In this document: positions 4,248 to 20,276 of the stretch, piece by piece
Layout: every line of letters starts with the position of its first letter
Position numbering within the stretch: the stretch's first letter is position 1
NCBI GenBank assembly: GCA_930990125.1
Contig: CAKNOI010000023.1
Location: 1 to 20,276, forward strand
From: an uncultured Clostridiaceae bacterium
GTDB lineage: Bacteria; Bacillota; Clostridia; TANB77; CAG-508
Length of the DNA: 20,276 nucleotides
Direction of reading: 5' to 3'
Program-made: the position numbers and the translations under genes
The notes under the pieces: model-generated
The model's input: the letters and a program-made list of their open reading frames with translations, nothing else
Told to the model about the DNA's origin: nothing
Database searches by the model: none

Positions 4248-4588
4248 AAACAATTTATCATTCTAAAAAATTTCGTTTTATTATTCTTATTTTATGCCTT
4301 TTCTTTCTCTGTTTTACTCTTTTTCCTATCTGTTCCTATGGGGCAACTCCTAAAATTGTAAAAATAGCAGAAGATGCCTTTGAGGATATTGAAAAATGGC
4401 TACTTACTATTTCCACTCCTGCTGCAGCTGTTGCTGTTGTTACCGGTTTATTTATCCAAAAATTTAGCTTTGGGGATGAAGAACGTATTCGAACAGGAAA
4501 AAAATTAGTAAAAAGTGCTTTATTTTGTTACGCTTTTGTACTAGGAACAGATCTTGTATTGGCAGCTATTAAAGCACTAGTAAAATAG
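4244..4588 (+). CDS. VirB2/TrbC-like small secreted membrane protein (pilin-like)
   Basis: ATGA start/stop overlap with the upstream gene. Signal peptide ending CSYG/ATP, followed by two hydrophobic helices (TPAAAVAVVTGLFI, ALFCYAFVLGTDLVLAAI). Assignment rests on architecture only. Confidence 0.5.
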   Translation: MKTIYHSKKFRFIILILCLFFLCFTLFPICSYGATPKIVKIAEDAFEDIEKWLLTISTPAAAVAVVTGLFIQKFSFGDEERIRTGKKLVKSALFCYAFVLGTDLVLAAIKALVK

Positions 4589-4601
4589 GATGTGATGCTA
4601 T

Positions 4602-5483
4602 TTGAGCTCTAACGTAAATGTAACCGAAGTAATTTTTCAAACAATAAATTCGTTATTAGAAAGTTTATTTTCTTCTATTGATAATAACGTATATACGATA
4701 TTAGATGATATTACATTTTTAGATGCTGATTTTCTAAAAGATTCTACATTTGAATCTATTTTTGGAACTTCTATCGGAAATGGCATGTTATATATTGTAG
4801 ATGCTTTTTTACTTGGTTTTGTTTTATATTACCTTTTTCGTCTTTTACTTTCACATTTTACCTATCTTCCTATTGAAAATCCGTATCAATTTTTATTTAA
4901 GTTATTGTTTATTGGTATTGCAATTCATTTTTCCTTTTTTCTATGTGAGCAATTGGTAACCCTCATTTCTTTCCTTTCTTCTGCTATTCGTGAATTAGGA
5001 GAATTACTATTCCATAAAAATATTTGTTTTGCCGAATTAATTACAGAATTAAATTCCACCATTTATGTTGGTGATTCGGATTTTAATATTTTTTCTTTTG
5101 ACGGCCTTTTAAAAGGATTTATCTCTGTTAGTTTATTAAATCTAGTATTTTCTTATTCTTTCCGTTATGTTTTACTTAAAATTTTACTTTTGTTTTCTCC
5201 TTTTGCTATTGCCACATTATTAAACCATTCTACTTCTTGGTTTTTTAAAACCTGGTTTCGCTCTGTGCTCTCTTTGCTTTCTATTCAGGTTTTAGTAGCA
5301 CTTGCTTTACTTATTATTTTATCAACCTCTTATAAAAGTAGTGATATTCTTTCCCAATTTATCTATATTGGTTCTTTATATGTTTTAATTCGCGCAAATT
5401 CCATTGTTCGTGAATTATTAGGTGGGTTATCCACAACTATTTCTCAATCTGTGGATACCTTTTCCTCTTTTTTTAAAAAATAA
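4602..5483 (+). CDS. polytopic membrane protein, VirB6/TrbL-like
   Basis: 293 aa with about 6 hydrophobic spans, positioned between the VirB2-like and VirB3-like genes. TTG start with a weak RBS. Assignment by context and topology. Confidence 0.45.
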   Translation: MSSNVNVTEVIFQTINSLLESLFSSIDNNVYTILDDITFLDADFLKDSTFESIFGTSIGNGMLYIVDAFLLGFVLYYLFRLLLSHFTYLPIENPYQFLFKLLFIGIAIHFSFFLCEQLVTLISFLSSAIRELGELLFHKNICFAELITELNSTIYVGDSDFNIFSFDGLLKGFISVSLLNLVFSYSFRYVLLKILLLFSPFAIATLLNHSTSWFFKTWFRSVLSLLSIQVLVALALLIILSTSYKSSDILSQFIYIGSLYVLIRANSIVRELLGGLSTTISQSVDTFSSFFKK

Positions 5484-5500
5484 TTGCTTGGAGGCCAACT

Positions 5501-5779
5501 ATGAAATTTATTTTTCCTAAAAACTATACTACCCGTTTTAAGTTATTTGGTTTTTTAGATTATACTACTGCCCTTTTTAATCTTTGTTGGATTCTTCTTC
5601 TTTTTGGTATATTACAACTATTTCCTTTTTCTTTTCAAACTAAACTGTTTATCCTTATCTTTCTTTCGTTTCCTTTACTATTATTTAGTATTTTTGGTTT
5701 TGCCGATGAAACGATTCTTTCTGTGCTTTCTTATCTTATTTCTTTCTATCGAAAAAGAAAAATATATTTATATCGCTAA
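5501..5779 (+). CDS. PrgI/TcpE-family (VirB3-like) small membrane protein
   Basis: GGAGG RBS. 92 aa with two TM helices and the family-typical layout FKLFG.L......F.....LLFG ... LSFPLLLFSIFGF.DE........YLISFYRKRKIYLY. Confidence 0.55.
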   Translation: MKFIFPKNYTTRFKLFGFLDYTTALFNLCWILLLFGILQLFPFSFQTKLFILIFLSFPLLLFSIFGFADETILSVLSYLISFYRKRKIYLYR

Positions 5780-5864
5780 TCCTTAAAAAAGTCCAAAATA
5801 CGCTTCTTTCCAACTTATTAATACATTCTTTTTCTCTTTCTTCTATTTTTCTTCTTTCTCTTGA

Positions 5865-5893
5865 TTGTAAATCTTTTGATAAAATGATATAAT
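5865..5893 (+). promoter_or_regulatory. sigma-A promoter (extended -10) of the dnaD/dnaI-like operon
   Basis: TTGTAA (5865-5870), 17-nt spacer, TGaTATAAT (5885-5893). AAGGAG RBS before ATG 5925. Confidence 0.55.
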
Positions 5894-5924
5894 CGATACG
5901 ATATTAAAAAAGGAGAAGAAAAAA

Positions 5925-6899
5925 ATGAAACTAGAGAAAAATGACCTCATCTTACTATTTTCTAATACAGAATTACCAGATGTATTTTTTACAGAATATC
6001 TTTCTGCTGCAAGTGGAGATGCCATTAAAGTGTATCTTTATTTTCTTTTCCTGTCCAAGTACAATAAAGAAATTAAATTAAACGATGTTTCTAAAACTTT
6101 AGCAATCCCTTTAAAAGGTATTCAAGATGCTATTAAATATTGGGAAGAGTTAGGTGTTTTTACCAAAAAAAATGCTGGTTATATTGTAAATAACATCCAA
6201 GAACTAGAATTGCATAAACTGTATTCGCCTAAAATTACGTCTTCACCAGAAGAAACCCAAAAAGTATCTAAAAATAAATACCGTGCAAAAGCAATTGAAA
6301 ATATTAATAATCAGTTTTTCCAAGGAGTCATGTCTCCTTCTTGGTATAGTGATATTGATTTATGGTTTAAGAAATATGGATTTGACGAACAAGTAATGAT
6401 TGCTCTTTTTCAATATTGTTTTAATCGTTCTGCCCTTCATCGAAATTATATTCAAACGGTAGCAGATGCTTGGTCTAAAAATAATATTAAAACTTTTAAT
6501 GACCTAGATTTATATTACGAAAAGCAAGAAAAGCTAAATGTAATGAAAAAAGCAATTGCTAAAAAACTTGGATATACTAGGGCTCTAACACAATACGAAG
6601 AAGCCTATATTGAAAAATGGTCTGTTGACTATGGATATAGCCTAGATATTATTGAAATTGCTTTAAAAAAGACAACTTCTAAAGCCAATCCAAATTTTGA
6701 CTATCTAGATAAACTTATTTCCGATTGGCATGATAGAGGATTTACAACAGTTTCAGAAATACAACAATTTATTGCAGAAATGAAACAAAAAAATAAAAAT
6801 ATAAAAGAATTAGAAAAGAAAACCGGATATCAGCATTATGAACAGAGAAATTATGACAATTTAGAAAATCTATACGCCAATCTTTCTAATCCATCTTAA
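5925..6899 (+). CDS. DnaD-domain replication protein (Firmicute DnaB/DnaD-like primosome component)
   Basis: N-terminal winged-helix-like region, then two DnaD-type C-terminal repeats (FDEQVMIALFQYCFNRSALHRNYIQTVADAWSKNNI and YSLDIIEIALKKT...NFDYLDKLISDWHDRGF). Followed by a loader ATPase gene. Confidence 0.8.
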   Translation: MKLEKNDLILLFSNTELPDVFFTEYLSAASGDAIKVYLYFLFLSKYNKEIKLNDVSKTLAIPLKGIQDAIKYWEELGVFTKKNAGYIVNNIQELELHKLYSPKITSSPEETQKVSKNKYRAKAIENINNQFFQGVMSPSWYSDIDLWFKKYGFDEQVMIALFQYCFNRSALHRNYIQTVADAWSKNNIKTFNDLDLYYEKQEKLNVMKKAIAKKLGYTRALTQYEEAYIEKWSVDYGYSLDIIEIALKKTTSKANPNFDYLDKLISDWHDRGFTTVSEIQQFIAEMKQKNKNIKELEKKTGYQHYEQRNYDNLENLYANLSNPS

Positions 6900-6911
6900 A
6901 AAGGAGGAATC

Positions 6912-7916
6912 ATGCAAAACACAGAATTGAAATCCATTTTAAAAGAATATGAAGAAAAAAGATTCCGCAGAGAATTAGCATTAGAACAGAAAAAGCAAGA
7001 AATATATGCAAAATGTCCTAGGTTACAAGAAATTGAAGACACATTAAAAAAGCTCGGAATTACAACCGTTCAATCTATTGCAAATTCAGATAAAACAACA
7101 CATTTACAAAAAATACAAGAATTAAACCAGAAAATACAACAACTAAAAACAGAAAAACAGCAATTACTTGCTTCATTGCAATTATCCGAAAAAGATTTAC
7201 TTCCTGTTTTTGATTGCCCTATCTGTGAAGATACCGGTTATACGAAGGAAAGTAACGGAACCGTAATGTGTTCATGTTTAACGCAAAAACTACTAAATAC
7301 ACAATATAATAAATCCAATATTACTAACATACAAAAAGAAAATTTTGAGAATTTTAACCTTCTTTACTACTCTGATAAAGTAGATACGGAAAAGTATTCT
7401 GCCTCTATCTCTCCAAGAGATAACATACAAATTATTAAAGGCATTTGTGAAAAATTTATTCAAAATTTTGATGACCCTTCCGAAAAAAATTTATTGTTTG
7501 TAGGTAATACGGGACTTGGAAAAACATTTCTTTCTAACTGCATTGCAGGAGAAATATTAGCAAAAAGAAAAACCGTTTTATATCAAACTGCTCCTGTTAT
7601 GTTTGATTCCATCTTAGATGATAAATTTGGAAAAACACATAACAACACCATGGAGCACATCCTAAATGCTAATTTACTCATTATAGATGACTTAGGAACA
7701 GAATATAGAAACGATTTAAAATTTGCGGATTTATATGAAATTATTAATACTCGATTACTACATCAAGAACAAAAAATTACTAAAACTATTATTTCTACTA
7801 ATTTAAATATTACTGCATTATTTAAAACCTATGACGAAAGAATTGTTTCTCGTTTAGTAGAACATTATAATATTTGTAGATTTTTTGGAGAAGACATTCG
7901 TTTTCAGAAAAAATAA
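6912..7916 (+). CDS. DnaI/DnaC-like helicase-loader AAA+ ATPase
   Basis: Zinc-ribbon-like CPICEDTG...CSC, Walker A GNTGLGKTFL, Walker B LLIIDDLGTE, and sensor region TIISTN. Confidence 0.85.
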   Translation: MQNTELKSILKEYEEKRFRRELALEQKKQEIYAKCPRLQEIEDTLKKLGITTVQSIANSDKTTHLQKIQELNQKIQQLKTEKQQLLASLQLSEKDLLPVFDCPICEDTGYTKESNGTVMCSCLTQKLLNTQYNKSNITNIQKENFENFNLLYYSDKVDTEKYSASISPRDNIQIIKGICEKFIQNFDDPSEKNLLFVGNTGLGKTFLSNCIAGEILAKRKTVLYQTAPVMFDSILDDKFGKTHNNTMEHILNANLLIIDDLGTEYRNDLKFADLYEIINTRLLHQEQKITKTIISTNLNITALFKTYDERIVSRLVEHYNICRFFGEDIRFQKK

Positions 7917-7933
7917 TAAAACCTTGTCTGCAG

Positions 7934-7962
7934 AAAAAAAGTGGCTAATTTGCCACTTTTTT
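7934..7962. terminator. bidirectional terminator between the convergent loader gene and gyrA
   Basis: AAAAAAA GTGGC TAATTT GCCAC TTTTTT. Confidence 0.7.
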
Positions 7963-7963
7963 C

Positions 7964-10402
7964 TTATTCTTCTACATTGTCTGGTGCAATAATTTCTATA
8001 CTTACTACTTTTCCTCCATCATTGGTTCTCATCAGAGTAACTCCTTGTGTCACTCTTCCTAATACACTAATATCTTTTACATTTAGTCGAATAATGGTTC
8101 CTGTATCGGTAATAAGCATTACATCATCTTCCTCGTTAGCAATGCGAATCCCTACGATATTACCGGTTTTTGGCGTTACTTTATAGGTGGTAACTCCTTT
8201 TCCGCCTCGGATTTGCACTCTATATTCTTCTAGTTCTGTTCTTTTTCCAAATCCATTTTCTGTAATAGCAAGTAATGTAGCATTGCTTCCTGAAATAATA
8301 GATTCCATTCCAATAACAGCATCGTCTTTATCTAATCGGATTCCCATTACTCCTTGTGCTACTCTTCCAATTGGTCTTACATCTTTTTCACTAAAGGTAA
8401 TGCTCATTCCCTTTTTGGTTACTAGCACAACATTATCTTGCCCATCGGTTAATCTTACTCCTATTAATTCATCATCTTCTTTTAGAGTAATTGCTTGTAA
8501 TCCAGATTTACGAACCGTATCATATTCTTTTAATGCCGTTTTCTTAATAAGTCCATTTTTAGTTGCCATTAATAAATATTTTTCATCTGCAAAAACACCT
8601 ATTGGAATAACAGCAGATACTTTTTCGCCATTATCTAGACTTAATAAATTAACAATTGCTGTTCCTTTTGCTGTTCTTCCCGCTTCTGGTATTTCGTATC
8701 CTTTTAACCTATATAATTTACCTTTATTGGTAAAGAATAAAATAGTATCATGCGTAGAAGCTGTAAAGATTTGTTTTACAAAATCATCTTCTCTGGTAGA
8801 AATACCTGTAATGCCTTTTCCTCCTCTTCTTTGACTCTTATAAGTATCAATTGGCATTCTTTTAATATAGCCAAAGTGTGTTAATGCTACTACACATTGT
8901 TCTTCTTTAATTAAATCTTCTTCTTCAAATTCTCCTTCTGCTGCCATTATCTTTGTTTTTCTTTCGTCACCATATTTATTCTTTATTTCTGTTAGTTCTT
9001 CTTTTATAATTTCAAATACTAATCTTTCGCTAGACAAAATCTCTTTTAAATGAGCAATTAGTTTCATTAACTCATTGTATTCTTCTTCTATTTTTTCTCT
9101 TTGCAAACCAGATAATGTTTTTAAACGCATGTCCAAAATAGCTTGTGCTTGAATATCTGTTAATCCAAAGCGTTCCATTAATCTTTCTTTTGGGTCATCA
9201 TAAGAAGAACGAATAATAGCAATTACTTCATCAATATTATCTAATGCTATTTTTAATCCTTCTAATATATGAGCTCTTGCTTCTGCCTTATCTAGTTCAA
9301 ACTTTGTTCTTCTTAAAATAACATCTTTTCTATGGTCAATATAATACTCTAAGCATTGACGTAATGTTAAGATTTTTGGTTCTCCGTTTACAAGGGCTAG
9401 CATGATAGCTCCAAATGTTGTTTGCATTTGTGTATACTTATATAATCTATTTAATACCACTTGTGCATTTGCATCTCTTTTTAGCTCAATAACAATACGT
9501 ACTTTATGCTCTCTATCAGATTCATCTCTTAACTCAGAAATTCCTTCTATTTTCTTTTCTTTTACATAATCTGCAATTGTTTCAATTAGTTTTGCTTTAT
9601 TTACTTGATATGGTAAAGATCTTACAATAATTCTTTGTTTGTTGCCAGACATTTCTTCAATTTCTGCTTCTGCTCTTACTGTAATTTTACCTTTTCCTGT
9701 CGTATAGGCTTCTTTAATTCCTTCTCTTCCTAAAATAATACCTTCTGTTGGGAAATCAGGTCCTTTTATAATGCCCATTAATTCTTCATCTGTTACTTGG
9801 TCTTCATCAATAATTTTGATAATTCCATTAATAACTTCTGTCAAATTATGAGGTGGAATATTGGTTGCCATACCTACGGCAATTCCAGAAGAACCATTCA
9901 CTAATAATGCTGGTATTTTTGCTGGAAGTACAGATGGCTCTTGCAATCTATCATCAAAGTTTGGCATAAATTCTACTGTATTCTTTTCAATATCCTCTAA
10001 CATAGATACTGCAAGTTTAGACATTCTTGCTTCTGTATAACGGTAAGCAGCAGCTCCATCTCCATCAATAGAACCAAAGTTTCCATGTCCATCAATTAAG
10101 GGGTATCGCAGTGAAAAATCTTGCGCCATTCTTACCATTGCATCATAAACAGAACTATCTCCATGTGGATGATATCTACCTAAAACGTCTCCAACGGTAG
10201 TAGCAGATTTTCTGTATGGTTTATCTGGTGTTAAACCATCTTCGTACATGGTATATAATATTCTTCTGTGTACTGGTTTTAAACCATCTCTAACATCTGG
10301 TAAAGCTCGAGAAACAATAACACTCATTGCATAATCAATATACGAATTTTTCATCTCGCTTTCAATGTCTTTTTCAATAATTTTTCCTTCTTGCATTTCC
10401 AT
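7964..10402 (-). CDS. gyrA: DNA gyrase subunit A
   Basis: 812 aa. Contains [36 protein letters not shown] (wild-type Ser/Asp pattern), the active-site Tyr in [11 protein letters not shown], and the GyrA-box QRRGGKG in the C-terminal beta-pinwheel. The GyrA box distinguishes GyrA from ParC. Confidence 0.96.
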
Positions 10403-10440
10403 GTTTCTTACCTCTTTTTCGTAATATTTTCTCTCTTTGT

Positions 10441-10469
10441 ATTATACTAAACCGTTACCAATTATGCAA
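10441..10469 (-). promoter_or_regulatory. sigma-A promoter of gyrA
   Basis: Minus strand reads TTGCAT (10469-10464), 17-nt spacer, TATAAT (10446-10441). GAGGT RBS before ATG 10402. Confidence 0.6.
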
Positions 10470-10492
10470 GGAAAAAAATCGTTTTTTTTAGT

Positions 10493-11206
10493 TTATGCCA
10501 ACATTTTTGCTAGTTCTAATTGTGTACTAGATAAATCAAATTGGTTATTATTATTTTCTATTAATTGCTGCAAGTTTTGTATTTGTTTTGCTTCTGTTAA
10601 GATGGTATCTATTGGCATAATATCTTTCATTAAAGAATCTATTTTTTTAGATACTGCTTTCATATTTTTTATATCTTTTTCTTGGTAATAATTTTTCCAT
10701 TTTTCTGTTTGCTCTTTTAATTCTTCTACATAAACAATTTGTCCATCCAATTCATGGTCTATTTTTTCTTTTATTTTTTCTACTACTGCATTTTTCCCTT
10801 CTTTCACCATTTTAGAAACATTACTACTTATTTTATCCTTATCTACTAACTCTTTAATGGCAGCATCTATTATTTTAGAAAAGGAATTAATTGTTTTTTC
10901 TTCTTTTAGAAAATCTTTTAAATTTGCCACCACATTTCCTATGTCTACTTCTTTACCACTATTTTCTTCTGATTTTTTTGTTTGCTCTAGTGCACCGCTA
11001 CTTATGGTTTCTTTTTCCTTATTAAAATCCCAAGATAATAGTTTATCTTTTAAATTACTTACTGGTTTTTCTATTAAATCTGGTACAAAAGTAGAAATAG
11101 CAAAATCTAAACCAGCATCTACTATTTTTCCTATTGTGGTATCTAAAAATTCTTTTTGTTCTGTTTCTTTTGTGTTTTCTATTCTTTTATCGGTTTCTAT
11201 CTCCAT
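10493..11206 (-). CDS. hypothetical acidic, Lys/Glu-rich, probably coiled-coil protein
   Basis: 237-aa ORF with no TM segment and no motif I recognise. Coding-like composition; the antisense ORFs are low-complexity shadows. Confidence 0.55.
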   Translation of the reverse strand: MEIETDKRIENTKETEQKEFLDTTIGKIVDAGLDFAISTFVPDLIEKPVSNLKDKLLSWDFNKEKETISSGALEQTKKSEENSGKEVDIGNVVANLKDFLKEEKTINSFSKIIDAAIKELVDKDKISSNVSKMVKEGKNAVVEKIKEKIDHELDGQIVYVEELKEQTEKWKNYYQEKDIKNMKAVSKKIDSLMKDIMPIDTILTEAKQIQNLQQLIENNNNQFDLSSTQLELAKMLA

Positions 11207-11225
11207 ATTTGGTATTTCCTTTCTT

Positions 11226-11398
11226 AGATAAGTATTTAAGTAACAAACTACATAGAACGAAAAAAATATAAATACAATTAAAACTTAATAGATTCGAATA
11301 TGGTTTTAAGGAGTTATCTTACTATTTTTATGCAACAGAACAAAATTTATCAGAGAGAAGTAAACATTCTATATAGTTTGTTGCTTAAATACTTATCT
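11226..11398. repeat. 32-bp imperfect inverted repeats flanking a 109-bp AT-rich core
   Basis: Left arm AGATAAGTATTTAAGTAACAAACTACATAGAA (11226-11257). Right arm TTCTATATAGTTTGTTGCTTAAATACTTATCT (11367-11398). 30 of 32 positions are complementary. Confidence 0.85.
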
Positions 11399-11408
11399 AT
11401 CTTTTCTT

Positions 11409-12722
11409 TTATGCTTCTTTCCATTTTTTTCTTAAAGCTGTAAAAAAGTTCTCTTTTTCTGGTGTTTCTATTTTTAAAATTCTTTTTGTTATCTTAGTAT
11501 ACGGTTTTTTCAAATTTATTTCTGCACTTTGATTTTTGGCATTCGTATTAATAAATAAATTATATTTTTTTTGATATTTTATTTTTCCTAATATTCTAAA
11601 ATCCGAAAATATATTTTTTAAAATTCCTTCTTCTATCGAAAATGCATCTACTTTATTAAATAATATGCCAATTTTATTGGGTTCTATTTTCCACTGTTGC
11701 AAATAAATATCTAATAATCTTTTTGCTTTTTTGATTCCTAAAATATTGGTATCCGTTACAAATATATTGGTATCACTACATTCTAACATTGCTTTGTGAA
11801 TATCAAAAAAACATTCACAAGAAGTATCCACAATTATCATTTCATATTCTTTTTGTAGTCCTACTAACATTTCTTGTATCTTACTAGGGATTTTATTCTT
11901 TTCTTTTTGAAATAAAATATCAAGACCACTAATTAAATCTATTTTTTTGGTAATGGGAATGGCTAATTTTTTTATTCTTTGGCTAGCATTTTTTTCAGAA
12001 AAAAGGGGAATAACATTATTTTGTAATCTTTGTTCTATTTTAGAGGGATATTTTTTCACTCCATAAATGGTATGTAAAGAATTATTTAAAAAATCAAAAT
12101 CTAAGACTAAAATACGTGAATATTCTTTTTGAAGGCTGTTGGCCAAGTTCACCGTAATAACACTTTTTCCTACTCCAGAGGGACCAATTATCCCTATAAT
12201 GTGTCTCTTTTTTTCTGGTATTGTTTTGGTTTTGTCTCCTATTTTCCCTTTTAAAGGTTGCAACATAGAAAAAAGGTTTTTTTGATTTTTTTGTAGTAAT
12301 AATTGTTTTAAATCTTGAATTTCTTTTTTTAATTCTATTTGTGAATCTTCTTGCTTCTCTTGTAGTTCTTCTTGTAATTTTCTTAAAAGTGCAGAATCTT
12401 TTGCAAAGTAATAGGATATTGCATTTTGCTTTAAGTAAATTAATAGCATTTCTTCTTTCTTTTTCAATATTAAAATCATTTTAATATTTGGCTTTTTTTG
12501 CTTTATTTTTTCTAGTAATGGTATTATTTCTTTTTTATTGGTAATGGTATCTTGTAGTAAAAGAGTATCTACTTTTTCTTCTTTTTCTAGCAATTCTATA
12601 ATCCCTTCTGGATATACAATATTATTTCCTACAAACTGTATTGCATGTATTCCTAGTTTTATCTTTAATTCTTCTCTTATTTCATTTTCTTCTAATGCTG
12701 TTATTATTTTTTTCATATACAT
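11409..12722 (-). CDS. ParA/MinD-family ATPase with N-terminal receiver-like domain (CpaE/TadZ-like architecture)
   Basis: The N-terminal ~120 aa have an alternating beta/alpha receiver-like pattern. P-loop IIGIIGPSGVGKSV, then LVLDFDF and IIVDTS. The likely start is ATG 12716, 8 nt after GGAGAGG. Overlaps the 3' end of the VirB4 C-fragment. Confidence 0.65.
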   Translation of the reverse strand: MYMKKIITALEENEIREELKIKLGIHAIQFVGNNIVYPEGIIELLEKEEKVDTLLLQDTITNKKEIIPLLEKIKQKKPNIKMILILKKKEEMLLIYLKQNAISYYFAKDSALLRKLQEELQEKQEDSQIELKKEIQDLKQLLLQKNQKNLFSMLQPLKGKIGDKTKTIPEKKRHIIGIIGPSGVGKSVITVNLANSLQKEYSRILVLDFDFLNNSLHTIYGVKKYPSKIEQRLQNNVIPLFSEKNASQRIKKLAIPITKKIDLISGLDILFQKEKNKIPSKIQEMLVGLQKEYEMIIVDTSCECFFDIHKAMLECSDTNIFVTDTNILGIKKAKRLLDIYLQQWKIEPNKIGILFNKVDAFSIEEGILKNIFSDFRILGKIKYQKKYNLFINTNAKNQSAEINLKKPYTKITKRILKIETPEKENFFTALRKKWKEA

Positions 12723-13527
12723 CCTCTCCTTCTATTAACTCTTTTTCTTTGTTGCTACATTCAATTTTGGTCAAAATGTGATTATTTCCTACTAACATCA
12801 AGCATTCTCCTTTTTTCAATTTTCGTATTTCTATTTGTTCTTTTGTGGATATTTCTACTTGTTTACTTAAAATCTTTATATCCCCTTCTTCCAATGAAAA
12901 AAATGTTTTAATACTAGAATTATTTAAAATGCTTCTTCCGTAAGCTCCTTCCTGAAAACTAAATAAATCGGATATATCTTGTGTAATAGATACAGCACTC
13001 CCATTATATTTTCGGATGGTTTTAAAAATGGTTAGAATAAAGCTAGCGACCTCTGAACAAGAGACTACACCTATCATTTTCCATATTTCATCTAAGTATA
13101 TAGATTTTTTATTTTTTTTGTTATTCTTGATTCTATCCCAAAAGATGTCCGAAAACAAAAACATCCCATAGGGTAGATATTTTTCTCCTAGATCTGATAT
13201 ATCTGCCACAACTAATAAATTATCTAATGAAATATTGGTCGGATGATTAAAAAAATTTAAAGAACCTTTTACAAAGGGAAATAATTTAACAGAAAAAATT
13301 TGTGTCCTAGCATCTTGTTGTAAAATGTAATATAAATCTTCTAGAATGGGCATTTGCTTCCCTGTTTTGAAAACAACTTCTTGTTTTTGCTGTTTTTTTA
13401 TTGTCTGATATAATGTTCTATCTTCCAATGTAATACCTTTTTTTTGATAGCATTGAATTATTTTTTCTTCTAAAATTGCTTTTTCTTCTTCTTTTATTTC
13501 TCCAAAAACAAGCTGAAAAAATCCCAT
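12682..13527 (-). pseudogene. VirB4-like conjugation ATPase, C-terminal fragment (Walker B part)
   Basis: SIYLDEIWKM (Walker B) and VSITQDISDLF. The reading frame stays open upstream of the annotated Met as KYGPGSNTYINILDIREGSKEEGQGYLATKIQKL, and joins the upstream fragment if one A of an A5 run is removed. Confidence 0.75.
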
Positions 13528-13609
13528 TAATTTTTGAATTTTGGTGGCTAAATATCCTTGTCCTTCCTCTTTACTTCCTTCTCTTATGTCTAAAATATTA
13601 ATGTAGGTA

Positions 13610-14545
13610 TTAGACCCAGGACCGTATTTTTACTACAACTCCATTTAAATTATGGCATAGTGTAATATATTCCTTTTCGGAATCGATAACATATTGTTCT
13701 ATTCCCATTAAGCGATAACGAAGAATACATAATTTGGTGTAAAAAGATTTTCCTGCTCCACTAGTTCCAAAAATACAAACATTTGCATTTTTATATTGAT
13801 TGTTATCATATTTATCAATAAATACTAAAGAATTATTATAAATATTTGTCCCAATAAAAATGCCATTTTTATCTAGTACAGAAGAAGAAATAAAAGGATA
13901 AGTTGCAGTTAGTCCTGTTGTTAAAATATTTCTTTTACTGACATTTCGAATTTCCATCTTATTTTGAAAAAATGGTAATATTGCTTTAAAAACTTGTTCT
14001 TGCCTAAAATAGGCTCTTTTTACTTGAATTCCTTTTCCTTGTAATATTCCTTCTATTTTATTTGCCTGGTATTCTAATTCTTGTTTATTTTCCACATAAA
14101 ACGTTAAATAAAATGATAAAAAATAAAGTTCTTCATTGTTCAATTGTAATTCTTTTCGGATATATTGTGCATCTTGATAAGTAAGTGCCACAATTTCTTT
14201 ATCTTGTATATTATTTGGTTTTTCTTTTAAATCGACACTATTATTTCCAATATAATAGGTTAAATCGCGAATAGATTGATACGTATCTTGTTTTTCATAA
14301 TACATAGAAAAAATAATATTACTATTTAATTCTATAATGTCTTCTAATAATAAGGTTTCATATTCGTGATAATAATTTGTTACTAAAAAAGAAAAGTAAT
14401 ACAATCCATCTATTTCAAGATATCTTGGATTTGTTGTATTAATATAAGAAGGGCTTATTTTATCTTTATCTTCATAAATACCTTCTTGAAATGTTTCTCT
14501 TTTTCTGTTTTTTATTTTCTTTTTTTTATTAAATATTTTCTTCAC
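13610..14545 (-). pseudogene. VirB4-like conjugation ATPase, central fragment (Walker A part)
   Basis: ISPSYINTTNPRYLEIDGLYYFSFL (the typical VirB4/TcpF/Orf16 central-domain start) and Walker A CIFGTSGAGKSFY. Ends prematurely at KIRSWV*. GTG start with no convincing RBS. Confidence 0.75.
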
Positions 14546-15242
14546 CTTCTTTAATATGATACTCTATAGGATGAAAAAAAGATGTTATAATATCTAAAAT
14601 TTCTTGTTTTGTTTCTATTAATTCTACAAAATTACCGCATCTGGATAACGATTCTTTTATTTTATAGTAACTTTCTGTTAATTCCTCTAATCTTTTATTT
14701 TCGGAAATAGTATTAACGGTATTACTATTTTTTAGAATAAGATAAAAATTTTTATGACATAATTTACGCTTTTGATGAAAATTTTGTATATATTGTTGAT
14801 ATTCTTTAATATACGATACAATAATTGGATCTTTTTCTTTTGGGGGAATCTTAGATATAAATTGAAAAATATTAGGTCTTGTGTTTTGAATAATAATCTG
14901 CAGATTACAATTACATGTTTTTAAAAAAATACGATACGAATTTAAAATTGCCTCTTTTTCTAACTCTGATTTTAATTGATAATTGATAGGAATTATCTTT
15001 ATCATTCGTAGATAGGTTGTACTATTTATTTTGATAACTCCATTGTTTAATATTTTTTCAAAAGGCAACCATTCTTGAACTGAAGCTTGGTTTTCCTTTT
15101 TCACTTTTTCTCCTTTCCTTTTACTTTCTGTTTTTATTGTACACATTTTGGAAAATTTTGTCAAGACTTTTCTTAAAGAATCGTATGACAAAATTCGACA
15201 AAACATTGTTTTTTCAAGCATTTTAAGCTTCATCCACTTCAT
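14529..15242 (-). CDS. VirB4-like ATPase N-terminal domain ORF (separate gene or first fragment of the same pseudogene)
   Basis: SVQEWLPFEKILNNGVIKINSTTYLRMIKIIPINYQLKSELEKEAILNSYRIFLKT matches the conserved N-terminus of Gram-positive VirB4 proteins (Tn916 Orf16, TcpF, PrgJ type). The start codon is uncertain. Confidence 0.6.
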   Translation of the reverse strand: MKWMKLKMLEKTMFCRILSYDSLRKVLTKFSKMCTIKTESKRKGEKVKKENQASVQEWLPFEKILNNGVIKINSTTYLRMIKIIPINYQLKSELEKEAILNSYRIFLKTCNCNLQIIIQNTRPNIFQFISKIPPKEKDPIIVSYIKEYQQYIQNFHQKRKLCHKNFYLILKNSNTVNTISENKRLEELTESYYKIKESLSRCGNFVELIETKQEILDIITSFFHPIEYHIKEGEENI

Positions 15243-15693
15243 CTAATGCAATGAAAAATATCTCTTCTATTTCTTCATAAATTTCTTTTGCTTGCTCTAA
15301 AGGTAAACATACTCCTTCCTCTCCTTTTCCAATTTCAATTGTAAAACCTGGTTTAGAATAGGTATTAACAAACCAATCTTTGTATCCAGCAAAAGAAGAT
15401 GCATATTCTGGTTCCGTATAATGATATCCACTAACTGTTTCAAATAATTTTGCTAGTTTTTTTGCTTTTGCGTTTTCTTTACCATTTCCATAAATCTCTT
15501 TTCCTTGTGAATGGAAAGAAATTGTTAAATCAAAAGAATGGATTTTTGTAAATTGATACATTGCAATGGTTTCTTTTTCGGAAAGTGGATTTGGTCCAAC
15601 ATAATCTCTTGGTCCTGGTTTAGTAACACCTTTTTTTTCTTTATTTTTTCTAGCTATTTCCCATCCAGCTGGATAATTTAAATTTAAATCCAC
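15223..15693 (-). pseudogene. 5'-truncated M14 zinc peptidase (gamma-D-glutamyl-diamino-acid peptidase-like)
   Basis: Begins inside the conserved VDLNLNYP motif. Retains ISFHSQG (third Zn ligand) and FTIEIG (catalytic Glu) but lacks the whole N-terminal part with the HxxE Zn ligands. The frame is closed by a stop 4 codons upstream of 15693. Confidence 0.7.
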
Positions 15694-15760
15694 ACCTGTG
15701 AAGTTGATTAACTTCCATATAAGAAAATTACAATAATGAAATATAAAAATATTTACAGAA

Positions 15761-15796
15761 ACAAGGTGTTTTTAAGCATCTTGTACTTTTTATTTT
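15761..15796 (+). terminator. possible rho-independent terminator at the island's left edge
   Basis: ACAAGGTG / loop TTTTTAAG / CATCTTGT (one G-U pair), followed by ACTTTTTATTTTTA. No + strand gene precedes it in the window. Confidence 0.35.
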
Positions 15797-15824
15797 TATA
15801 TCTATATGATAAATAGGATATACC

Positions 15825-15848
15825 TTTAGGACAGAGGTATGTCCTAAA
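15825..15848. promoter_or_regulatory. palindrome upstream of the island promoter (possible operator or recombination site)
   Basis: TTTAGGAC (15825-15832) / AGAGGTAT / GTCCTAAA (15841-15848). Nearby repeated GGACA motifs (AGGACAG, GGGACAA). Confidence 0.3.
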
Positions 15849-15932
15849 TGGGACAATATAATATTATAAGTATAATAAGATAGATAGATTATTAATTATA
15901 TATAAAATATACTAAAAAATGTGAAAATTCTA

Positions 15933-15961
15933 TTGACATAGAAACAAGTGTTTGGTATAAA
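15933..15961 (+). promoter_or_regulatory. strong sigma-A promoter (extended -10) of the island operon
   Basis: TTGACA (15933-15938), 17-nt spacer, TGgTATAAA (15953-15961). A second TGGTATAAA copy at 16033-16041 may be a tandem -10. Confidence 0.6.
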
Positions 15962-16059
15962 TATAGATGTAGATTTTAGAATAAATATTAGTCAAATTGT
16001 GGAATAAAAACTCATTATGTGATATATTAGTATGGTATAAAAATAAAGGGATAGTTGTT

Positions 16060-16470
16060 ATGAAAAATTTAGTTTTTATGAGTATTAAACAAATACACAT
16101 AGATAGAATCTTAAGCAAATTAAAAAATCATGAATTTAGGACAAAGAAACCAAAGCAAAAGATTAAATATATAGCTGTATATGTTCCATCACCATTAAAG
16201 GAGCTTAAGTATATTTTAAAAGTTAGAGAGCCAATTTCAACACCAGATAAAATTCTAATAGATGGATATGGAAATCAGAGTTTTAACAAAGAAAGTAAAG
16301 AAAAATACGCTTATCCAATAGAAAATGTTTATGAAATTAATAAACAAATTACTTTAAAGGATTTAAGAGAAAAATTTAATTTTACAGCACCACAATCATT
16401 TGCTTATGGAGAAAGATACCCAGAATTAGTAGACTACATTGAAAAAATAGGATTTACAAAATTATACTAA
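16060..16470 (+). CDS. ASCH-domain (PUA-like fold) protein
   Basis: MKNLVFMSIKQIHIDRILSKLKNHEFRTKKPKQKIKYIAVYVPSP..ELKYILKV fits the ASCH pattern (sIkp.y...I..G.K..E.R...p......i.vY...P). I prefer ATG 16060 (AAGGG RBS 9 nt upstream) over the ORF-track TTG at 15997, which has no RBS. Confidence 0.55.
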   Translation: MKNLVFMSIKQIHIDRILSKLKNHEFRTKKPKQKIKYIAVYVPSPLKELKYILKVREPISTPDKILIDGYGNQSFNKESKEKYAYPIENVYEINKQITLKDLREKFNFTAPQSFAYGERYPELVDYIEKIGFTKLY

Positions 16471-16482
16471 CTAAAGGAGAGA

Positions 16483-17517
16483 ATGATAATGAAAAGAAAA
16501 TGTATAGAACTGTTTGCAGGAGCAGGAGGTTTAGCATTAGGACTAGAAGAAGCAGGATTTGAGGAAATAGGATTAATAGAAATAGATAAAACAGCTTGTG
16601 CCACATTAAGATTAAATAGACCTAATTGGAATGTAATAGAAGATGACATTGTTGAATTTTCAAAAAGAGATTTACTGAAAGAATTTAATTTGAAAAAAGG
16701 AGAGTTAGATTTATTATCAGGTGGATACCCTTGTCAATCATTTAGTTATGCAGGGAAAAAATTAGGTTTAGATGATGTCAGAGGTACAATGTTTTATTAT
16801 TATGCTGAATTTTTGAGGCAATTGAAACCTAAAATGTTTTTAGCAGAAAACGTAAAAGGATTAACTACTCATGATGGTGGTAGAACAATAAAAACAATGG
16901 TAGATGTGTTTCAAGATTTAGGTTATGAAGTAGAATGGAAAGTATTAAATGCATGGGATTATGGAGTAGCTGAAAAAAGACAAAGGGTAGTAATAATAGG
17001 CGCTAGAAATGATTTAAAGGGAAAAGTTAAATTTGAGTATCCAAAACCACATGATTATAAACCTGTTTTAAGAGATGTATTACAAAATGTGCCAGAATCG
17101 GTTGGAGCACAATACCCAGAAAAAAAGAAGAAAGTGTTTGATTTAGTACCACCAGGAGGATATTGGAAAGATTTACCTGATGATGTTGCAAGAGATTATA
17201 TGAAATCTTGTTATTTTATGGGTGGAGGAAGAACTGGTATTGCTAGAAGAATTTCATGGGACGAGCCATCGTTAACATTAACATGTTCTCCAATGATGAA
17301 ACAAACAGATAGATGTCATCCAGATGAAAGTAGACCATTTACAACAAGAGAATATGCTAGAATTCAATCTTTTCCAGATGAATGGCAGTTTGCAGGAAAA
17401 ATGAATGATGTATATAAACAAATAGGAAATGCTGTGCCAGTTAATTTAGCTAAGGAAGTAGGAATTTCAATAATGAAAGCTTTAAATAAAGGAGGAGATG
17501 TAAATGTGGAATCTTAG
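16483..17517 (+). CDS. DNA (cytosine-5)-methyltransferase
   Basis: All the classic motifs are present: I ELFAGAGGLALGL, IV GGYPCQSFSYAGK, VI ENVKGL, VIII QRQRVVIIG, IX TTREYARIQSFPDEW, X YKQIGNAVPVNLA. The start may be the second ATG (16489). Confidence 0.95.
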   Translation: MIMKRKCIELFAGAGGLALGLEEAGFEEIGLIEIDKTACATLRLNRPNWNVIEDDIVEFSKRDLLKEFNLKKGELDLLSGGYPCQSFSYAGKKLGLDDVRGTMFYYYAEFLRQLKPKMFLAENVKGLTTHDGGRTIKTMVDVFQDLGYEVEWKVLNAWDYGVAEKRQRVVIIGARNDLKGKVKFEYPKPHDYKPVLRDVLQNVPESVGAQYPEKKKKVFDLVPPGGYWKDLPDDVARDYMKSCYFMGGGRTGIARRISWDEPSLTLTCSPMMKQTDRCHPDESRPFTTREYARIQSFPDEWQFAGKMNDVYKQIGNAVPVNLAKEVGISIMKALNKGGDVNVES

Positions 17518-18256
17518 TTTTATAACAAAAGAAAATTTTAAGGAACATATAAAAAATACAATATCTACTTATGAGAAAACATTAGATGGAATAGATTTAA
17601 GCAAGTTTAATTCAAACATTGTAGATCCAATAAAAATGGTTTTTGACAGTAAAGTATATAGAAAAAGTTTTGAAGAAGTGATAAAAGATGAACTAGTAAG
17701 ACAAAGGGATAAAACAAATTCAAACGCAATAGGATATTTCCATCAAAACATGTTTAAATACATAAAAAATTGTGAAGTTCCAAAAGAAGGATTCGACGTC
17801 ATTTATACAAAAAATGATGGAACTAAAATATATATAGAAATGAAAAATAAGCATAATACAATGAATTCATCTTCATCACAAAAAACATATATGAGAATGT
17901 TAAATAAAATTGCAAATGATAGCACAGCAGAATGTTATTTAGTAGAAGCAATAGCTAAAACTAGTCAAAACATAGTATGGAAAGTTTCTGTTGATGGTGA
18001 AAGAGTTGAAAATGAAAAAATAAGAAGAGTATCTTTAGATAAATTTTATGAAATAGTAACTGGAGATAAAGAAGCTTTTTATAAAATGTGTATGGAATTA
18101 CCAAAAATAATTGATGAAATCATAGAAGAACATAAAGAATTACAAGTCGGTTCAGATACTGTTATTGATGAACTAAAAGAAAAAAATCCAGATTTATTAA
18201 AGGCATTATATTTGCTAGCTTTTAAAGAATATGAAGGATTTGAGAATTTAAAATAA
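17504..18256 (+). CDS. type II restriction endonuclease, PD-(D/E)xK fold (resembles my recollection of the Eco47II family)
   Basis: AGGAGG RBS. Overlaps the methyltransferase stop by 14 nt. Candidate catalytic core GFDVIYTKNDGTKIYIEMKNKHNTMN (D...E-x-K). Also IDPIK and GYFHQ motifs. Confidence 0.65.
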   Translation: MWNLSFITKENFKEHIKNTISTYEKTLDGIDLSKFNSNIVDPIKMVFDSKVYRKSFEEVIKDELVRQRDKTNSNAIGYFHQNMFKYIKNCEVPKEGFDVIYTKNDGTKIYIEMKNKHNTMNSSSSQKTYMRMLNKIANDSTAECYLVEAIAKTSQNIVWKVSVDGERVENEKIRRVSLDKFYEIVTGDKEAFYKMCMELPKIIDEIIEEHKELQVGSDTVIDELKEKNPDLLKALYLLAFKEYEGFENLK

Positions 18257-18282
18257 ATATTGCGGTTGAGGAGAAACAAAAT

Positions 18283-18906
18283 ATGGATATATTAAAATAT
18301 TTAAACTCGATATCAATAACTGTAACGTTAGATAATATTATAGTCGCTAGTATCTTAATAATACTGATAGTCATAGTAATATATTTTATTTATGGAACGA
18401 TAAAATTTTTTTTAAAAAAGAAATTTAAAATTGTAACTATGAATATAAATATAGCAAATATAGGAAGTGTTAGCATTGAAAAGAACAGAGATATTTCTAA
18501 AATAGCACATAAAGCTTGGGTAGAGATAATGACAAGAAAAGTTGGGCTATTGTTTGAAGAAGATAAAGATGTGATCGTAGAAGTATATAATTCATGGTAT
18601 GCATTATTTGGAATTATTAGGGAATTATTAAAAGAAATTGAACCAAGGAAAAAGGATACTGAAATTGAAAAATTAGAAGATATATTAATTAAAACCTTAA
18701 ACTATGGGTTAAGACCTCATTTAACAAAATGGCAAGCTAAATTTAGAAGGTGGTATAAACAAGAAATTGGGATTGGGGAAAATCAAAAATTATCACCACA
18801 AGAAATTCAAAGAAAGTATGATAAATATGATGAACTAGTTGAAGATTTAAAGAAAACCAATAAGCAAATGGTTCAGTTTGCAGAAGAGTTGAAAAAATTG
18901 ATATAA
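18283..18906 (+). CDS. single-pass membrane protein with an uncharacterised helical C-terminal domain
   Basis: GAGGAG RBS 9 nt upstream. TM helix IIVASILIILIVIVIYFIYGTIKFF, then a ~150-aa soluble part (KAWVEIMTRKVGLLFEE...RPHLTKWQAKFRRWYKQE) with no motif I recognise. Confidence 0.7.
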   Translation: MDILKYLNSISITVTLDNIIVASILIILIVIVIYFIYGTIKFFLKKKFKIVTMNINIANIGSVSIEKNRDISKIAHKAWVEIMTRKVGLLFEEDKDVIVEVYNSWYALFGIIRELLKEIEPRKKDTEIEKLEDILIKTLNYGLRPHLTKWQAKFRRWYKQEIGIGENQKLSPQEIQRKYDKYDELVEDLKKTNKQMVQFAEELKKLI

Positions 18907-18961
18907 AATTTTAATTTTTAAATAAATTTTATTTTAACTTGGTAAAGGTTGGAGGAAACGC

Positions 18962-19738
18962 ATGGAATATAACGTATATAAGTTAGGAAATTTAGCAAAA
19001 GGAAAAATAGTTGAAGTAACATTAAAAGGTAATGCTGCAAATGTATTACTTTTAGATAGTAGCAATTATAATAATTATAAAAAAGGGAGGAGATACAAAT
19101 ATTATGGAGGCTTCGTAAAGAAATCTCCATTTAGAATAGTAGTTCCAAATTCTGGACAATGGTATCTAGTTATAAATTTGGGTGGATATAGAGGACGAGT
19201 AAGTACTTCAGTAAAAATTTTACCTGGAATTATGCCTGCTGCTAAAAATTTTAATACATCTGATTTATCTTCATTATTTTTAGGAAATACATCATCTAAT
19301 GATATTGAAAAAGAATATGATGTATTTATATCACATGCTACTGAAGATAAAGATGAGGTTGTAAGACCATTAGCCAATGCATTAAAGAATAGAAATTTGA
19401 ATGTCTGGTATGACGAGTTTGAACTGAAAATTGGAGATAGTTTAAGACAAAAAATTGATAAAGGTGTTGCTAATAGTAAATTTGGAATTGTTATATTGTC
19501 AAAGAACTTTATAAAAAAAGGATGGACAAATTATGAGTTAGATGGATTGATAACTCGTTCAGTTTCCGGACAACAAATATTATTACCTATATGGCATAAT
19601 ATAACTAAACAAGAAGTAATGGATTATTCTCCTTCTATTGCAGACAAAGTTGCGAGAAATACAAGTGTAAATACAATAGAAGAAATAGCAAATGAGATTG
19701 CAGAAATTATAAAAGGAAAGGATGATAAAAATGTATAA
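18962..19738 (+). CDS. DUF1883-TIR fusion protein
   Basis: GGAGG RBS. The N-terminus YKLGNLAKGKIVEVTLKGNAANVLLLDSSNYNNYKKGRRYKYYGG...SGQWYLVINLGGYRG fits the DUF1883 pattern. The C-terminus has TIR motifs YDVFISHATEDKD, WYDEFELKIGDSL, VILSKNFIKKGWTNYELDG and LLPIWH. Confidence 0.85.
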   Translation: MEYNVYKLGNLAKGKIVEVTLKGNAANVLLLDSSNYNNYKKGRRYKYYGGFVKKSPFRIVVPNSGQWYLVINLGGYRGRVSTSVKILPGIMPAAKNFNTSDLSSLFLGNTSSNDIEKEYDVFISHATEDKDEVVRPLANALKNRNLNVWYDEFELKIGDSLRQKIDKGVANSKFGIVILSKNFIKKGWTNYELDGLITRSVSGQQILLPIWHNITKQEVMDYSPSIADKVARNTSVNTIEEIANEIAEIIKGKDDKNV

Positions 19739-20276
19739 TTATTTTAACAACATACAAAAGCATAAAGTCTTTATAAGTTATTATCATAAGGATGACCAAA
19801 AATATAAAAATTATATTGATGATAATTTTAAAGATATAATAATAAATAAATCAGTTATGGACAATGATATAGATTCAGATAATAGTGATGAATATATAAA
19901 GAGACTTATAAGAGAAGATTATATTTCAGATTCATCTGTAGTTATAGTTTTAGTTGGAAAAAATACAAAAACAAGAAAACACGTAGATTGGGAAATATAT
20001 GCAGGATTAAGAGGCAGCGTAAACGGAAATTCGGGTTTAGTTGGAATCTTATTACCAGAATTGCAAAGCAATAATAATCAGTATTATTATGAAGATATTC
20101 CATCCAGACTAGCTGATAATATAAAGAGTGGTTATAGTAAAATGTATGATTGGAATTATGCAATTAATAATTTTAAATCAATAATTGATGAAGCTTTTGA
20201 AAATAGAATAAAATTAAAAGATAAAATAGATAATTCAAGAAATCAAATGCAAAATAATACTACTGGATGGTATTAA
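19722..20276 (+). CDS. ThsB-type TIR-like protein (DUF1863 / MTH538 TIR-like family)
   Basis: HKVFISYYHKDD ... SSVVIVLVGKNTKTRKHVDWEIYAGL parallels the Bacillus ThsB motif VTCVLIGSQTFNRRWVRYEI. The likely start is ATG 19731, which overlaps the upstream stop (ATGTATAA). The stop codon is the last 3 nt of the window. Confidence 0.8.
   Translation: MIKMYNYFNNIQKHKVFISYYHKDDQKYKNYIDDNFKDIIINKSVMDNDIDSDNSDEYIKRLIREDYISDSSVVIVLVGKNTKTRKHVDWEIYAGLRGSVNGNSGLVGILLPELQSNNNQYYYEDIPSRLADNIKSGYSKMYDWNYAINNFKSIIDEAFENRIKLKDKIDNSRNQMQNNTTGWY

Follow-up and report, generated by a model that had tools for sequence, protein, structure and literature searches.

The DNA analysed here, the whole of which is hereinafter termed the window, is a 20,276-nt stretch comprising positions 1 to 20,276 of contig CAKNOI010000023.1 from an uncultured Clostridiaceae bacterium (assembly GCA_930990125.1). 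Three tightly packed plus-strand genes at positions 18283-20276 encode a protein with a single transmembrane helix, a DUF1883 domain fused to a TIR domain (hereinafter designated DUF1883-TIR) and a ThsB-type TIR protein, and we assign the first and the third as putative thsG and thsB of a type VI Thoeris system. The thsG gene starts 26 nt past the end of a restriction endonuclease gene, thsB follows thsG on that strand after 815 nt, separated from it by the DUF1883-TIR gene and no other, and the stop codon of thsB forms the very end of the window. An earlier inspection of the letters made without database searches (hereinafter the sequence-only reading) had described three packed plus-strand genes with these domains, and all are present as described. 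The overlap that it saw between the thsB ATG and the stop codon of the DUF1883-TIR gene (19736-19738) is true for either candidate start, 19722 (184 aa) or 19731 (181 aa), the latter being used by gene callers on other contigs, and the Glu that it saw retained in both TIR proteins corresponds to E192 within WTNYELDG of DUF1883-TIR and E91 within HVDWEIY of ThsB. It had also seen no SIR2, SLOG or Macro signature, and we found none of these domains in the window open reading frames (ORFs) that were scanned, precomputed Pfam matches included. From this it drew two alternatives: an effector encoded just beyond position 20276, or the 207-aa membrane protein as a co-transcribed effector of an undescribed Thoeris variant.

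Thoeris types V-XI were named by Yirmiya et al. (bioRxiv, December 2025; 10.64898/2025.12.03.692087). Type VI consists of a TIR protein and the effector ThsG, annotated as DUF6650 and in some members as 'DUF6650 and TM' (TM, transmembrane); it is rare (255 operons in ~38,000 genomes), and five of the eight systems tested protected against phage (10.64898/2025.12.03.692087). One 'DUF6650 and TM' effector, Ga0209396_100023225, belongs to a system carried by the metagenomic Gammaproteobacteria scaffold 3300025731 / Ga0209396_1000232 and was defensive in Escherichia coli (Table S2, 10.64898/2025.12.03.692087).

Both putative core proteins of the window are homologous to this validated pair. The thsB product matches ThsB_TIR (PF08937, E = 3.6e-20) and is 62% identical over 138 aa (BLASTP, E = 4e-61) to Ga0209396_100023224, the validated type VI ThsB, and 47% identical to the type VI ThsB of E. 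coli ACN001. It has in common with them the HVDWEI motif, the Glu of which is the presumed catalytic residue. The validated TIR was recovered as an exact protein (P0269, 100%) together with contig Ga0209396_1000232, and the next gene on that contig (L090:4561-5196, 211 aa) encodes the Table S2 effector Ga0209396_100023225. The 207-aa protein of the window aligns with this effector over its full length (36% identity over 207 aa, E = 3e-43), the N-terminal hydrophobic helix included, and a hidden Markov model (HMM) of the 71-member ThsG family scores the validated ThsG at 2.2e-77. The homology of both proteins to a validated pair identifies the window module as type VI Thoeris and the 207-aa protein as its ThsG, an assignment of thsG plus thsB to an anti-phage module to which we attach a probability of about 0.85-0.9. 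The ThsB_TIR domain and the ThsG homology thereby bear out the Thoeris-type module of the sequence-only reading.

A decayed type VI Thoeris lies on the E. coli plasmid NZ_CP019257.1 (locus L174, 360-1702). Its ThsB, frameshifted and split in two ORFs, has 98% identity to the validated TIR of E. coli ACN001, and the ThsG-like gene upstream is broken by stops and frameshifts. We used the latter only as a check on the HMM, which detects both frameshifted pieces (E = 7e-9 and 4e-5).

The strongest hydrophobic 19-residue window of the 207-aa protein begins at residue 19, with a mean Kyte-Doolittle value of 3.26. The AlphaFold2 monomer (mean predicted local distance difference test score 83.6) shows one long helix (residues 16-47), followed by a beta-hairpin (50-66) and then by a domain made up of helices only (69-204), and in this model residues ~16-47 would form an N-terminal transmembrane helix with the helical domain in the cytoplasm. 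Across 71 homologues 20 columns are invariant, among them R85, K86, Y102, W105, R113, W157, Q173, Q176 and the run N140-T148 except position 141. The Arg, Lys, His, Trp and Gln residues among them would be compatible with a nucleotide pocket. The family is large and widespread: a word-indexed search gave 985 proteins, an exhaustive search 675 clusters at 50% identity, and a scan of 185,579 species genomes relatives in 254 matched stretches, with hosts in Bacillota, Actinomycetota, Acidobacteriota, Planctomycetota, Pseudomonadota, Bacteroidota, Chloroflexota, candidate-phyla bacteria and one archaeon. The index of the assembly collection lists the identical 207-aa protein in 368 blocks. Searching 50,697 phage records with ThsG by tblastn returned zero matches, and the plasmid collection gave three (Aureispira, Calothrix and L. 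plantarum), with adjacency to a TIR gene confirmed in two. When a Bacillus type VI TIR was used as query for the 'DUF6650' ThsG lacking a transmembrane segment, the best plasmid match, in Aureispira, again carried the ThsG type that the window protein retrieves.

Nothing meaningful matched the 207-aa protein in Pfam, NCBIfam or PADLOC v2 (2023), and the Foldseek comparison of its model with the PDB, one of the checks proposed with the sequence-only reading, returned no significant fold match (best E = 0.76, generic helical bundles only). The proposed PADLOC check had a mixed outcome, in that the TIR part of DUF1883-TIR was matched by PDC-S66 and the 207-aa protein by no model. These blank results agree with the idea that the protein is a new, undescribed signal-activated Thoeris effector. 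Its full-length homology to a validated ThsG, the gene at L090:4561-5196 being taken as the Table S2 effector, rules that candidate out, its partner ThsB is likewise homologous to a validated TIR, and type VI has been named and tested (10.64898/2025.12.03.692087) and used again since (10.64898/2026.06.15.732069), so that novelty of the effector is very improbable. The undescribed variant of the sequence-only reading does not survive this comparison.

The genomic neighbourhood of ThsG connects it to TIR genes. We fetched 80 genome loci of ThsG homologues, called their ORFs and searched them with the window ThsB and then with a profile built from its matches, 79 loci being counted. The 79 come from many phyla, candidate-phyla bacteria and one archaeon included, and at least 66 of them have a TIR gene next to the homologue or in its operon. 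In 54 loci the ThsG homologue and a ThsB-type ORF are immediate neighbours on one strand, the ThsB-type ORF being upstream in 38 and downstream in 16 and the two often overlapping, and a further ThsB (L055) is also adjacent once an over-extended start is allowed for. Other configurations are a DUF1883-TIR gene as the sole separator of ThsB and ThsG (five loci), a 370-aa TIR_2 protein adjoining ThsG in place of ThsB (L022 and L024), a weak ThsB_TIR neighbour plus two more TIR genes (L069), and an Nmad2 (nucleotide modification associated domain 2) gene in the order ThsB, Nmad2, ThsG homologue on one strand (three loci) or with the same set on the opposite strand (L063). ThsG is also found in multi-TIR operons of Aureispira and Dysosmobacter.

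One could instead assign the 207-aa protein to the restriction-modification unit upstream, or take it for an unrelated membrane protein, and suppose that the TIR proteins deplete NAD+ alone; the 26-nt distance from the endonuclease gene is in keeping with this, and no terminator-like site was found between the six plus-strand genes at this end of the window. The promoter scan was uninformative in such AT-rich DNA (46 sites versus 39.8 expected). Methyltransferase homologues, however, were detected in only 15 of 88 loci with a ThsG homologue, with the endonuclease too in only 13 of these, placing the restriction-modification pair outside the Thoeris core, whereas a TIR gene accompanies most ThsG homologues; and in the validated two-gene system added 2' cyclic ADP-ribose (2'cADPR) is toxic to carrier cells (10.64898/2025.12.03.692087). 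We therefore rejected the membrane protein as a restriction-modification component, for which only a slight chance is left. The conserved TIR neighbourhood, together with the rarity of the methyltransferase, makes the membrane protein and the ThsB-type TIR the conserved unit, and the tie of ThsG homologues to ThsB-type TIR genes across many phyla marks the 207-aa protein as the effector partner. The co-occurrence check proposed at the outset thus came out in favour of association with TIR genes, mainly of ThsB type, and supports the co-transcribed effector that the sequence-only reading had envisaged.

Several other arrangements were observed at ThsG loci. The Nmad2 gene between a ThsB-type TIR and a ThsG homologue recurs in several distant genomes (L036 6041-8579; L054 6203-8618; L089 4418-6150; L063 8049-9828; L052 82-1453), sometimes joined by a NUDIX or kinase-like gene, and in L081 (1518-5320) its place is taken by 5-hydroxymethyldeoxyuridine DNA kinase-like and thymidylate-synthase-like genes and a 205-aa ORF. 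The Nmad2 arrangement could be a type VI variant with signal processing, or could reflect a tie to nucleotide-modification pathways. In L037 (3966-8504) the ThsG homologue is preceded, at a distance of 16 nt, by the end of a gene for an nSTAND1 NTPase of 1296 aa that has WD40 repeats, and no ThsB-type TIR was detected near the homologue; this ThsG may have a non-ThsB partner, or a TIR may be hidden in the N-terminus of the large protein. On the Aureispira plasmid NZ_CP133672.1 (L177 2077-6001) three consecutive TIR genes precede a ThsG homologue, and Bacillus toyonensis (L092 1531-8555) has five TIR genes, one a TIR-LD_cluster2 fusion, with two ThsG-like genes.

Since nothing past thsB is included in it, the window by itself leaves room for a true effector of canonical ThsA type (SIR2-SLOG or TM-Macro) encoded just past its end. 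We fetched eight contigs encoding the identical 207-aa protein, five of which reach past the mobile cassette described below and extend 2-10 kb further. Downstream of thsB these longer contigs carry a 49-52-aa ORF, then a large serine recombinase in four reading frames, then an M14 peptidase fragment, and none of the five has a SIR2, SLOG or Macro domain in the additional 2-10 kb. Longer contigs with identical genes thus rule out a ThsA at this place, we consider its existence there exceedingly improbable, and the branch of the sequence-only reading that looked for the effector beyond 20276 is refuted.

The same contigs delimit the cassette. A shared block of ~7.0 kb (L002 7358-14373) is 98.9-100% identical in at least five contigs with non-aligning flanks and in every case interrupts an M14 peptidase gene. 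On the left the block stops between window positions 15595 and 15661, depending on the copy, and on the right ~2.4 kb past the window. Beyond it, the genes are unrelated housekeeping genes that vary by contig (gyrB-recF-dnaN-dnaA in one, ruvAB in another). The near-identical block, the unrelated flanks and the M14 peptidase fragments on both sides indicate that the block is a mobile cassette which has inserted into an M14 peptidase gene. The cassette holds the 157-aa protein, the C5 methyltransferase, the Eco47II endonuclease, thsG, DUF1883-TIR, thsB and the serine recombinase (Table 1). The 157-aa product of the first gene has no Pfam or NCBIfam match. The serine recombinase is split over four frames in every copy examined (L002 12637-14271), despite the spread of the cassette.

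Table 1 Features of the window discussed in the text
Feature	Position	Strand	Size and basis
Putative thsG, type VI Thoeris effector	18283-18906	+	207 aa; homology to validated ThsG, family HMM, AlphaFold2 model, TIR-gene neighbourhood
Accessory DUF1883-TIR, AbTir-family TIR	18962-19738	+	258 aa; Pfam, identity to AbTIR
Putative thsB, signal-producing TIR	19722-20276	+	184 aa, or more likely 181 aa (ATG 19731); PF08937, identity to type VI ThsB
C5 cytosine methyltransferase	16483-17517	+	PF00145, E = 2.1e-87
Eco47II-family restriction endonuclease	17504-18256	+	PF09553, E = 1.3e-87
First cassette gene	15997-16470	+	157 aa (136 aa in other gene calls); weak PADLOC PDC-M11B match, 2.5e-12; travels with cassette
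M14 peptidase gene, 3' fragment	15223-15693	-	interrupted by cassette
Left 4.7 kb of the 7.0-kb mobile cassette	15595-20276		shared block across contigs

Upstream of the cassette, gyrA (7964-10402, minus strand) is parted from gyrB, recF, dnaN and dnaA (L002) by mobile-element genes, among them ParA-like and TraG P-loop fragments, together with the interrupted M14 peptidase gene (window 2550-15693). Upstream stand genes for a coupling-protein-like product (2550-4247), a DnaB_2-domain protein (5925-6899) and a DnaC/IstB-like protein (6912-7916). This origin-proximal region of the genome is one that has taken up several mobile elements.

The middle gene of the module encodes a 258-aa protein with DUF1883 at residues 1-88 (E = 2.4e-30; E = 4.3e-14 against PDB 2b1y) and TIR_2/TIR at 119-237 (E = 6.7e-21 and 1.7e-15). 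Its TIR domain (~117-251) belongs to the AbTir family and shares 65% identity with the Acinetobacter baumannii protein AbTIR over 135 aa (PDB 8g83, E = 1.8e-60). W188 and E192 of the WTNYE motif align with AbTir W204 and the catalytic Glu, respectively, and six relatives all retain E192. What AbTir makes from NAD+ is mainly 2'cADPR, at 93% of the product, and the Trp of the AbTir alphaC helix is needed for cyclisation. The PADLOC profile PDC-S66 matches only the TIR part of DUF1883-TIR (4.6e-75), its N-terminal 138 positions remaining unmatched, and PDC-M50B matches ThsB weakly (4.3e-13).

Of the five defensive type VI systems, three had TIRs that made 2'cADPR on infection, and cells carrying the two-gene Gammaproteobacteria system were arrested in growth by added 2'cADPR, not by 3'cADPR or cADPR (10.64898/2025.12.03.692087). 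XopQ, which cleaves 2'cADPR, abolishes both the defence and the 2'cADPR toxicity of that system (10.64898/2026.06.15.732069). In an AlphaFold3 model ThsG forms a homo-hexameric tube, and the pockets between its protomers are basic (10.64898/2025.12.03.692087). By analogy, phage infection would activate the ThsB TIR enzyme of the window, which would convert NAD+ to a signal that is probably 2'cADPR. The signal would bind the cytoplasmic helical domain of membrane-anchored ThsG, which is predicted to work as an oligomeric ring whose protomers have positively charged pockets between them, and ThsG would then halt cell growth before the phage cycle completes, probably by membrane damage. DUF1883-TIR could serve as a second sensor yielding the same 2'cADPR signal, or as an independent single-gene NADase.

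A number of points weigh against parts of this interpretation. No 2'cADPR was detectable with two of the five type VI systems that were defensive, and the route by which ThsG arrests growth was not established in the source paper (10.64898/2025.12.03.692087). The TIR cluster 2741407742, which has the RKHVDWEI motif and contains the window and validated ThsB, includes in the relevant part of Table S1 some members that adjoin the type VIII CMP (cytidine monophosphate)-hydrolase effector, and this effector responds to canonical cADPR (10.64898/2025.12.03.692087). The presence of type VIII-paired TIRs in the same cluster means that the signal is not readable from the TIR alone, and effectors that respond to different ligands may be served by ThsB proteins that are close relatives. 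With respect to ThsG, about 8 of the 79 homologues have no detectable nearby TIR gene, besides two at contig edges. The DUF6650 profile (PF20355) was unmatched by hmmscan in the window protein, in the validated ThsG and in five ThsG-like proteins scanned singly, and was not among the 25 families listed for the 71 homologues, 58 further families with at most one member each being unlisted. Pfam scans of the 71 homologues and of six more divergent ThsG-like proteins gave weak, chance-level matches only, and the 'DUF6650' label of the paper, not reproduced here, probably rests on a more sensitive or cluster-level annotation. With respect to DUF1883-TIR, a survey of 80 metagenome loci with relatives 58-81% identical found neither ThsG nor ThsB within the fetched flanks in 68, and many of the relatives without ThsG sit inside type I restriction operons, between hsdS and hsdR. 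The large share of relatives away from ThsG and ThsB favours an autonomous role for DUF1883-TIR.

In such a role DUF1883-TIR would be a single-gene defence of its own, with DUF1883 as sensor and the TIR domain as an NAD+-depleting effector, and only ThsB would signal to ThsG. Further neighbours of the stand-alone genes are WYL, AAA_13 or NgoMIV genes, and no constant partner gene was found for them, their frequent neighbours having no counterpart in the window. PDC-S66, the PADLOC candidate that matches the TIR part, is a single-gene system, AbTir-family TIRs are strong NADases on their own, and the 65%-identical ThsG relatives (L015, L016 and L044) occur as a plain thsG-thsB pair with no DUF1883-TIR. 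The position of the DUF1883-TIR gene between thsG and thsB, with its stop overlapping the thsB start, speaks against an autonomous role, as do the recurrence, in separate lineages, of AbTir-type TIR genes next to the ThsB and ThsG genes, with six or more distinct gene orders and type VI being itself rare, and the fact that the known product of the AbTir family, 2'cADPR, is the exact ThsG ligand. In a Helicobacteraceae locus the same TIR type, with a coiled-coil N-terminus replacing DUF1883, lies beside ThsB and ThsG. TIRs 78% identical to the window protein are retained as putative signalling TIRs with a putative effector 'DUF2188' in part of Table S1 (10.64898/2025.12.03.692087), and no 'DUF2188' gene is present in the window. 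Autonomy of DUF1883-TIR is hence a serious candidate, a little short of an even chance.

The other candidate is a second input to ThsG. The 65% identity to AbTir, a 2'cADPR cyclase, suggests that DUF1883-TIR may feed the same effector, with DUF1883 sensing a different phage cue and the TIR domain making 2'cADPR; this we put forward tentatively, since product specificity can differ among close TIRs. A second 2'cADPR source for ThsG and an autonomous NADase parked in the operon are about equally likely. Because most relatives sit elsewhere, with ThsB and ThsG alongside in only 12 of the 80 metagenome loci, DUF1883-TIR is best regarded as an add-on and not as part of the core. The two TIR proteins of the sequence-only reading are thus both real, but they are not equivalent: ThsB is the core partner, and DUF1883-TIR is an accessory protein found mostly without ThsG.

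Two side observations concern the surroundings of DUF1883-TIR genes. Placements with type I restriction, WYL-WCX or AAA_13 genes are seen in L107 (3257-5777), L168 (828-4891), L163 (3576-5759) and L160 (621-5098), none of them with ThsG. A small GIY-YIG-like ORF, 128 aa as called with an over-extended start included, directly precedes the DUF1883-TIR gene in 15 loci.

Taken as a whole, an effector other than ThsA does exist at the locus, as the sequence-only reading had reasoned, but ThsG of type VI was described and validated in late 2025, so the locus extends a known system and does not found a new one. Before December 2025 it would have been a real discovery, and the earlier reasoning was sound. 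The locus represents a compact and very widespread version of type VI Thoeris of low-GC Clostridium type, and shows this system travelling with a restriction-modification pair on one 7-kb cassette. Models in Pfam, NCBIfam and PADLOC v2 miss ThsG, so annotation pipelines will keep flagging such loci as effector-less Thoeris. The possibly new point that remains is the role of the AbTir-like TIR, whose presence inside a putatively 2'cADPR-dependent operon is a clue to the bacterial role of AbTir-family proteins. Were DUF1883-TIR a second input, one membrane effector would integrate two unrelated TIR sensors, the AbTir family would have a native immune role, and the many stand-alone DUF1883-TIR genes of restriction operons might be free 2'cADPR sources or NADases able to plug into type VI.

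Among known systems, the PADLOC candidates PDC-S66 (single gene) and PDC-M50B match the TIR half of DUF1883-TIR and, weakly, ThsB, respectively, and neither matches the 207-aa protein. Type I Thoeris, composed of ThsB and a SIR2-SLOG ThsA with 3'cADPR as signal, shares with the window the ThsB-type TIR (PF08937), often in several copies per locus. By contrast, no SIR2 or SLOG domain occurs in the window or downstream, and the window effector is a membrane protein and not an NADase; the locus thus lacks the SIR2-SLOG or TM-Macro ThsA that types I and II require. Types II (TIR and TM-Macro, signal histidine-ADP-ribose), V (DUF2270, 3'cADPR) and VII (SLATT, cADPR) follow the same logic, in which a TIR-made signal derived from ADP-ribose acts on a membrane-spanning effector and leads to arrest or death. 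The window effector differs from theirs in having no Macro, DUF2270 or SLATT domain, in having one transmembrane helix instead of two, three or more, and in its expected ligand, 2'cADPR.

Compared with AbTir (PDB 8g83, 7uwg and 7uxu), DUF1883-TIR keeps the cyclisation Trp and the Glu four residues on in a TIR domain 65% identical over 135 aa. AbTir has an N-terminal region of its own in place of DUF1883, and the window gene is embedded in a Thoeris operon. The closest counterpart of the module as a whole is the type VI system of Ga0209396_1000232. Both have a two-gene core of ThsB_TIR (62% identity) and a ~210-aa effector with a single N-terminal transmembrane helix (36% identity), with genes adjacent or overlapping on one strand and mobile-element genes nearby. 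They differ in gene order, thsG being first in the window and thsB first in Ga0209396_1000232, in the extra DUF1883-TIR gene between thsG and thsB in the window, and in host, a low-GC (28%) Clostridium-like bacterium as against a Gammaproteobacteria scaffold. Unlike Ga0209396_1000232, the window module shares a serine-recombinase cassette with a restriction-modification pair of Eco47II type.

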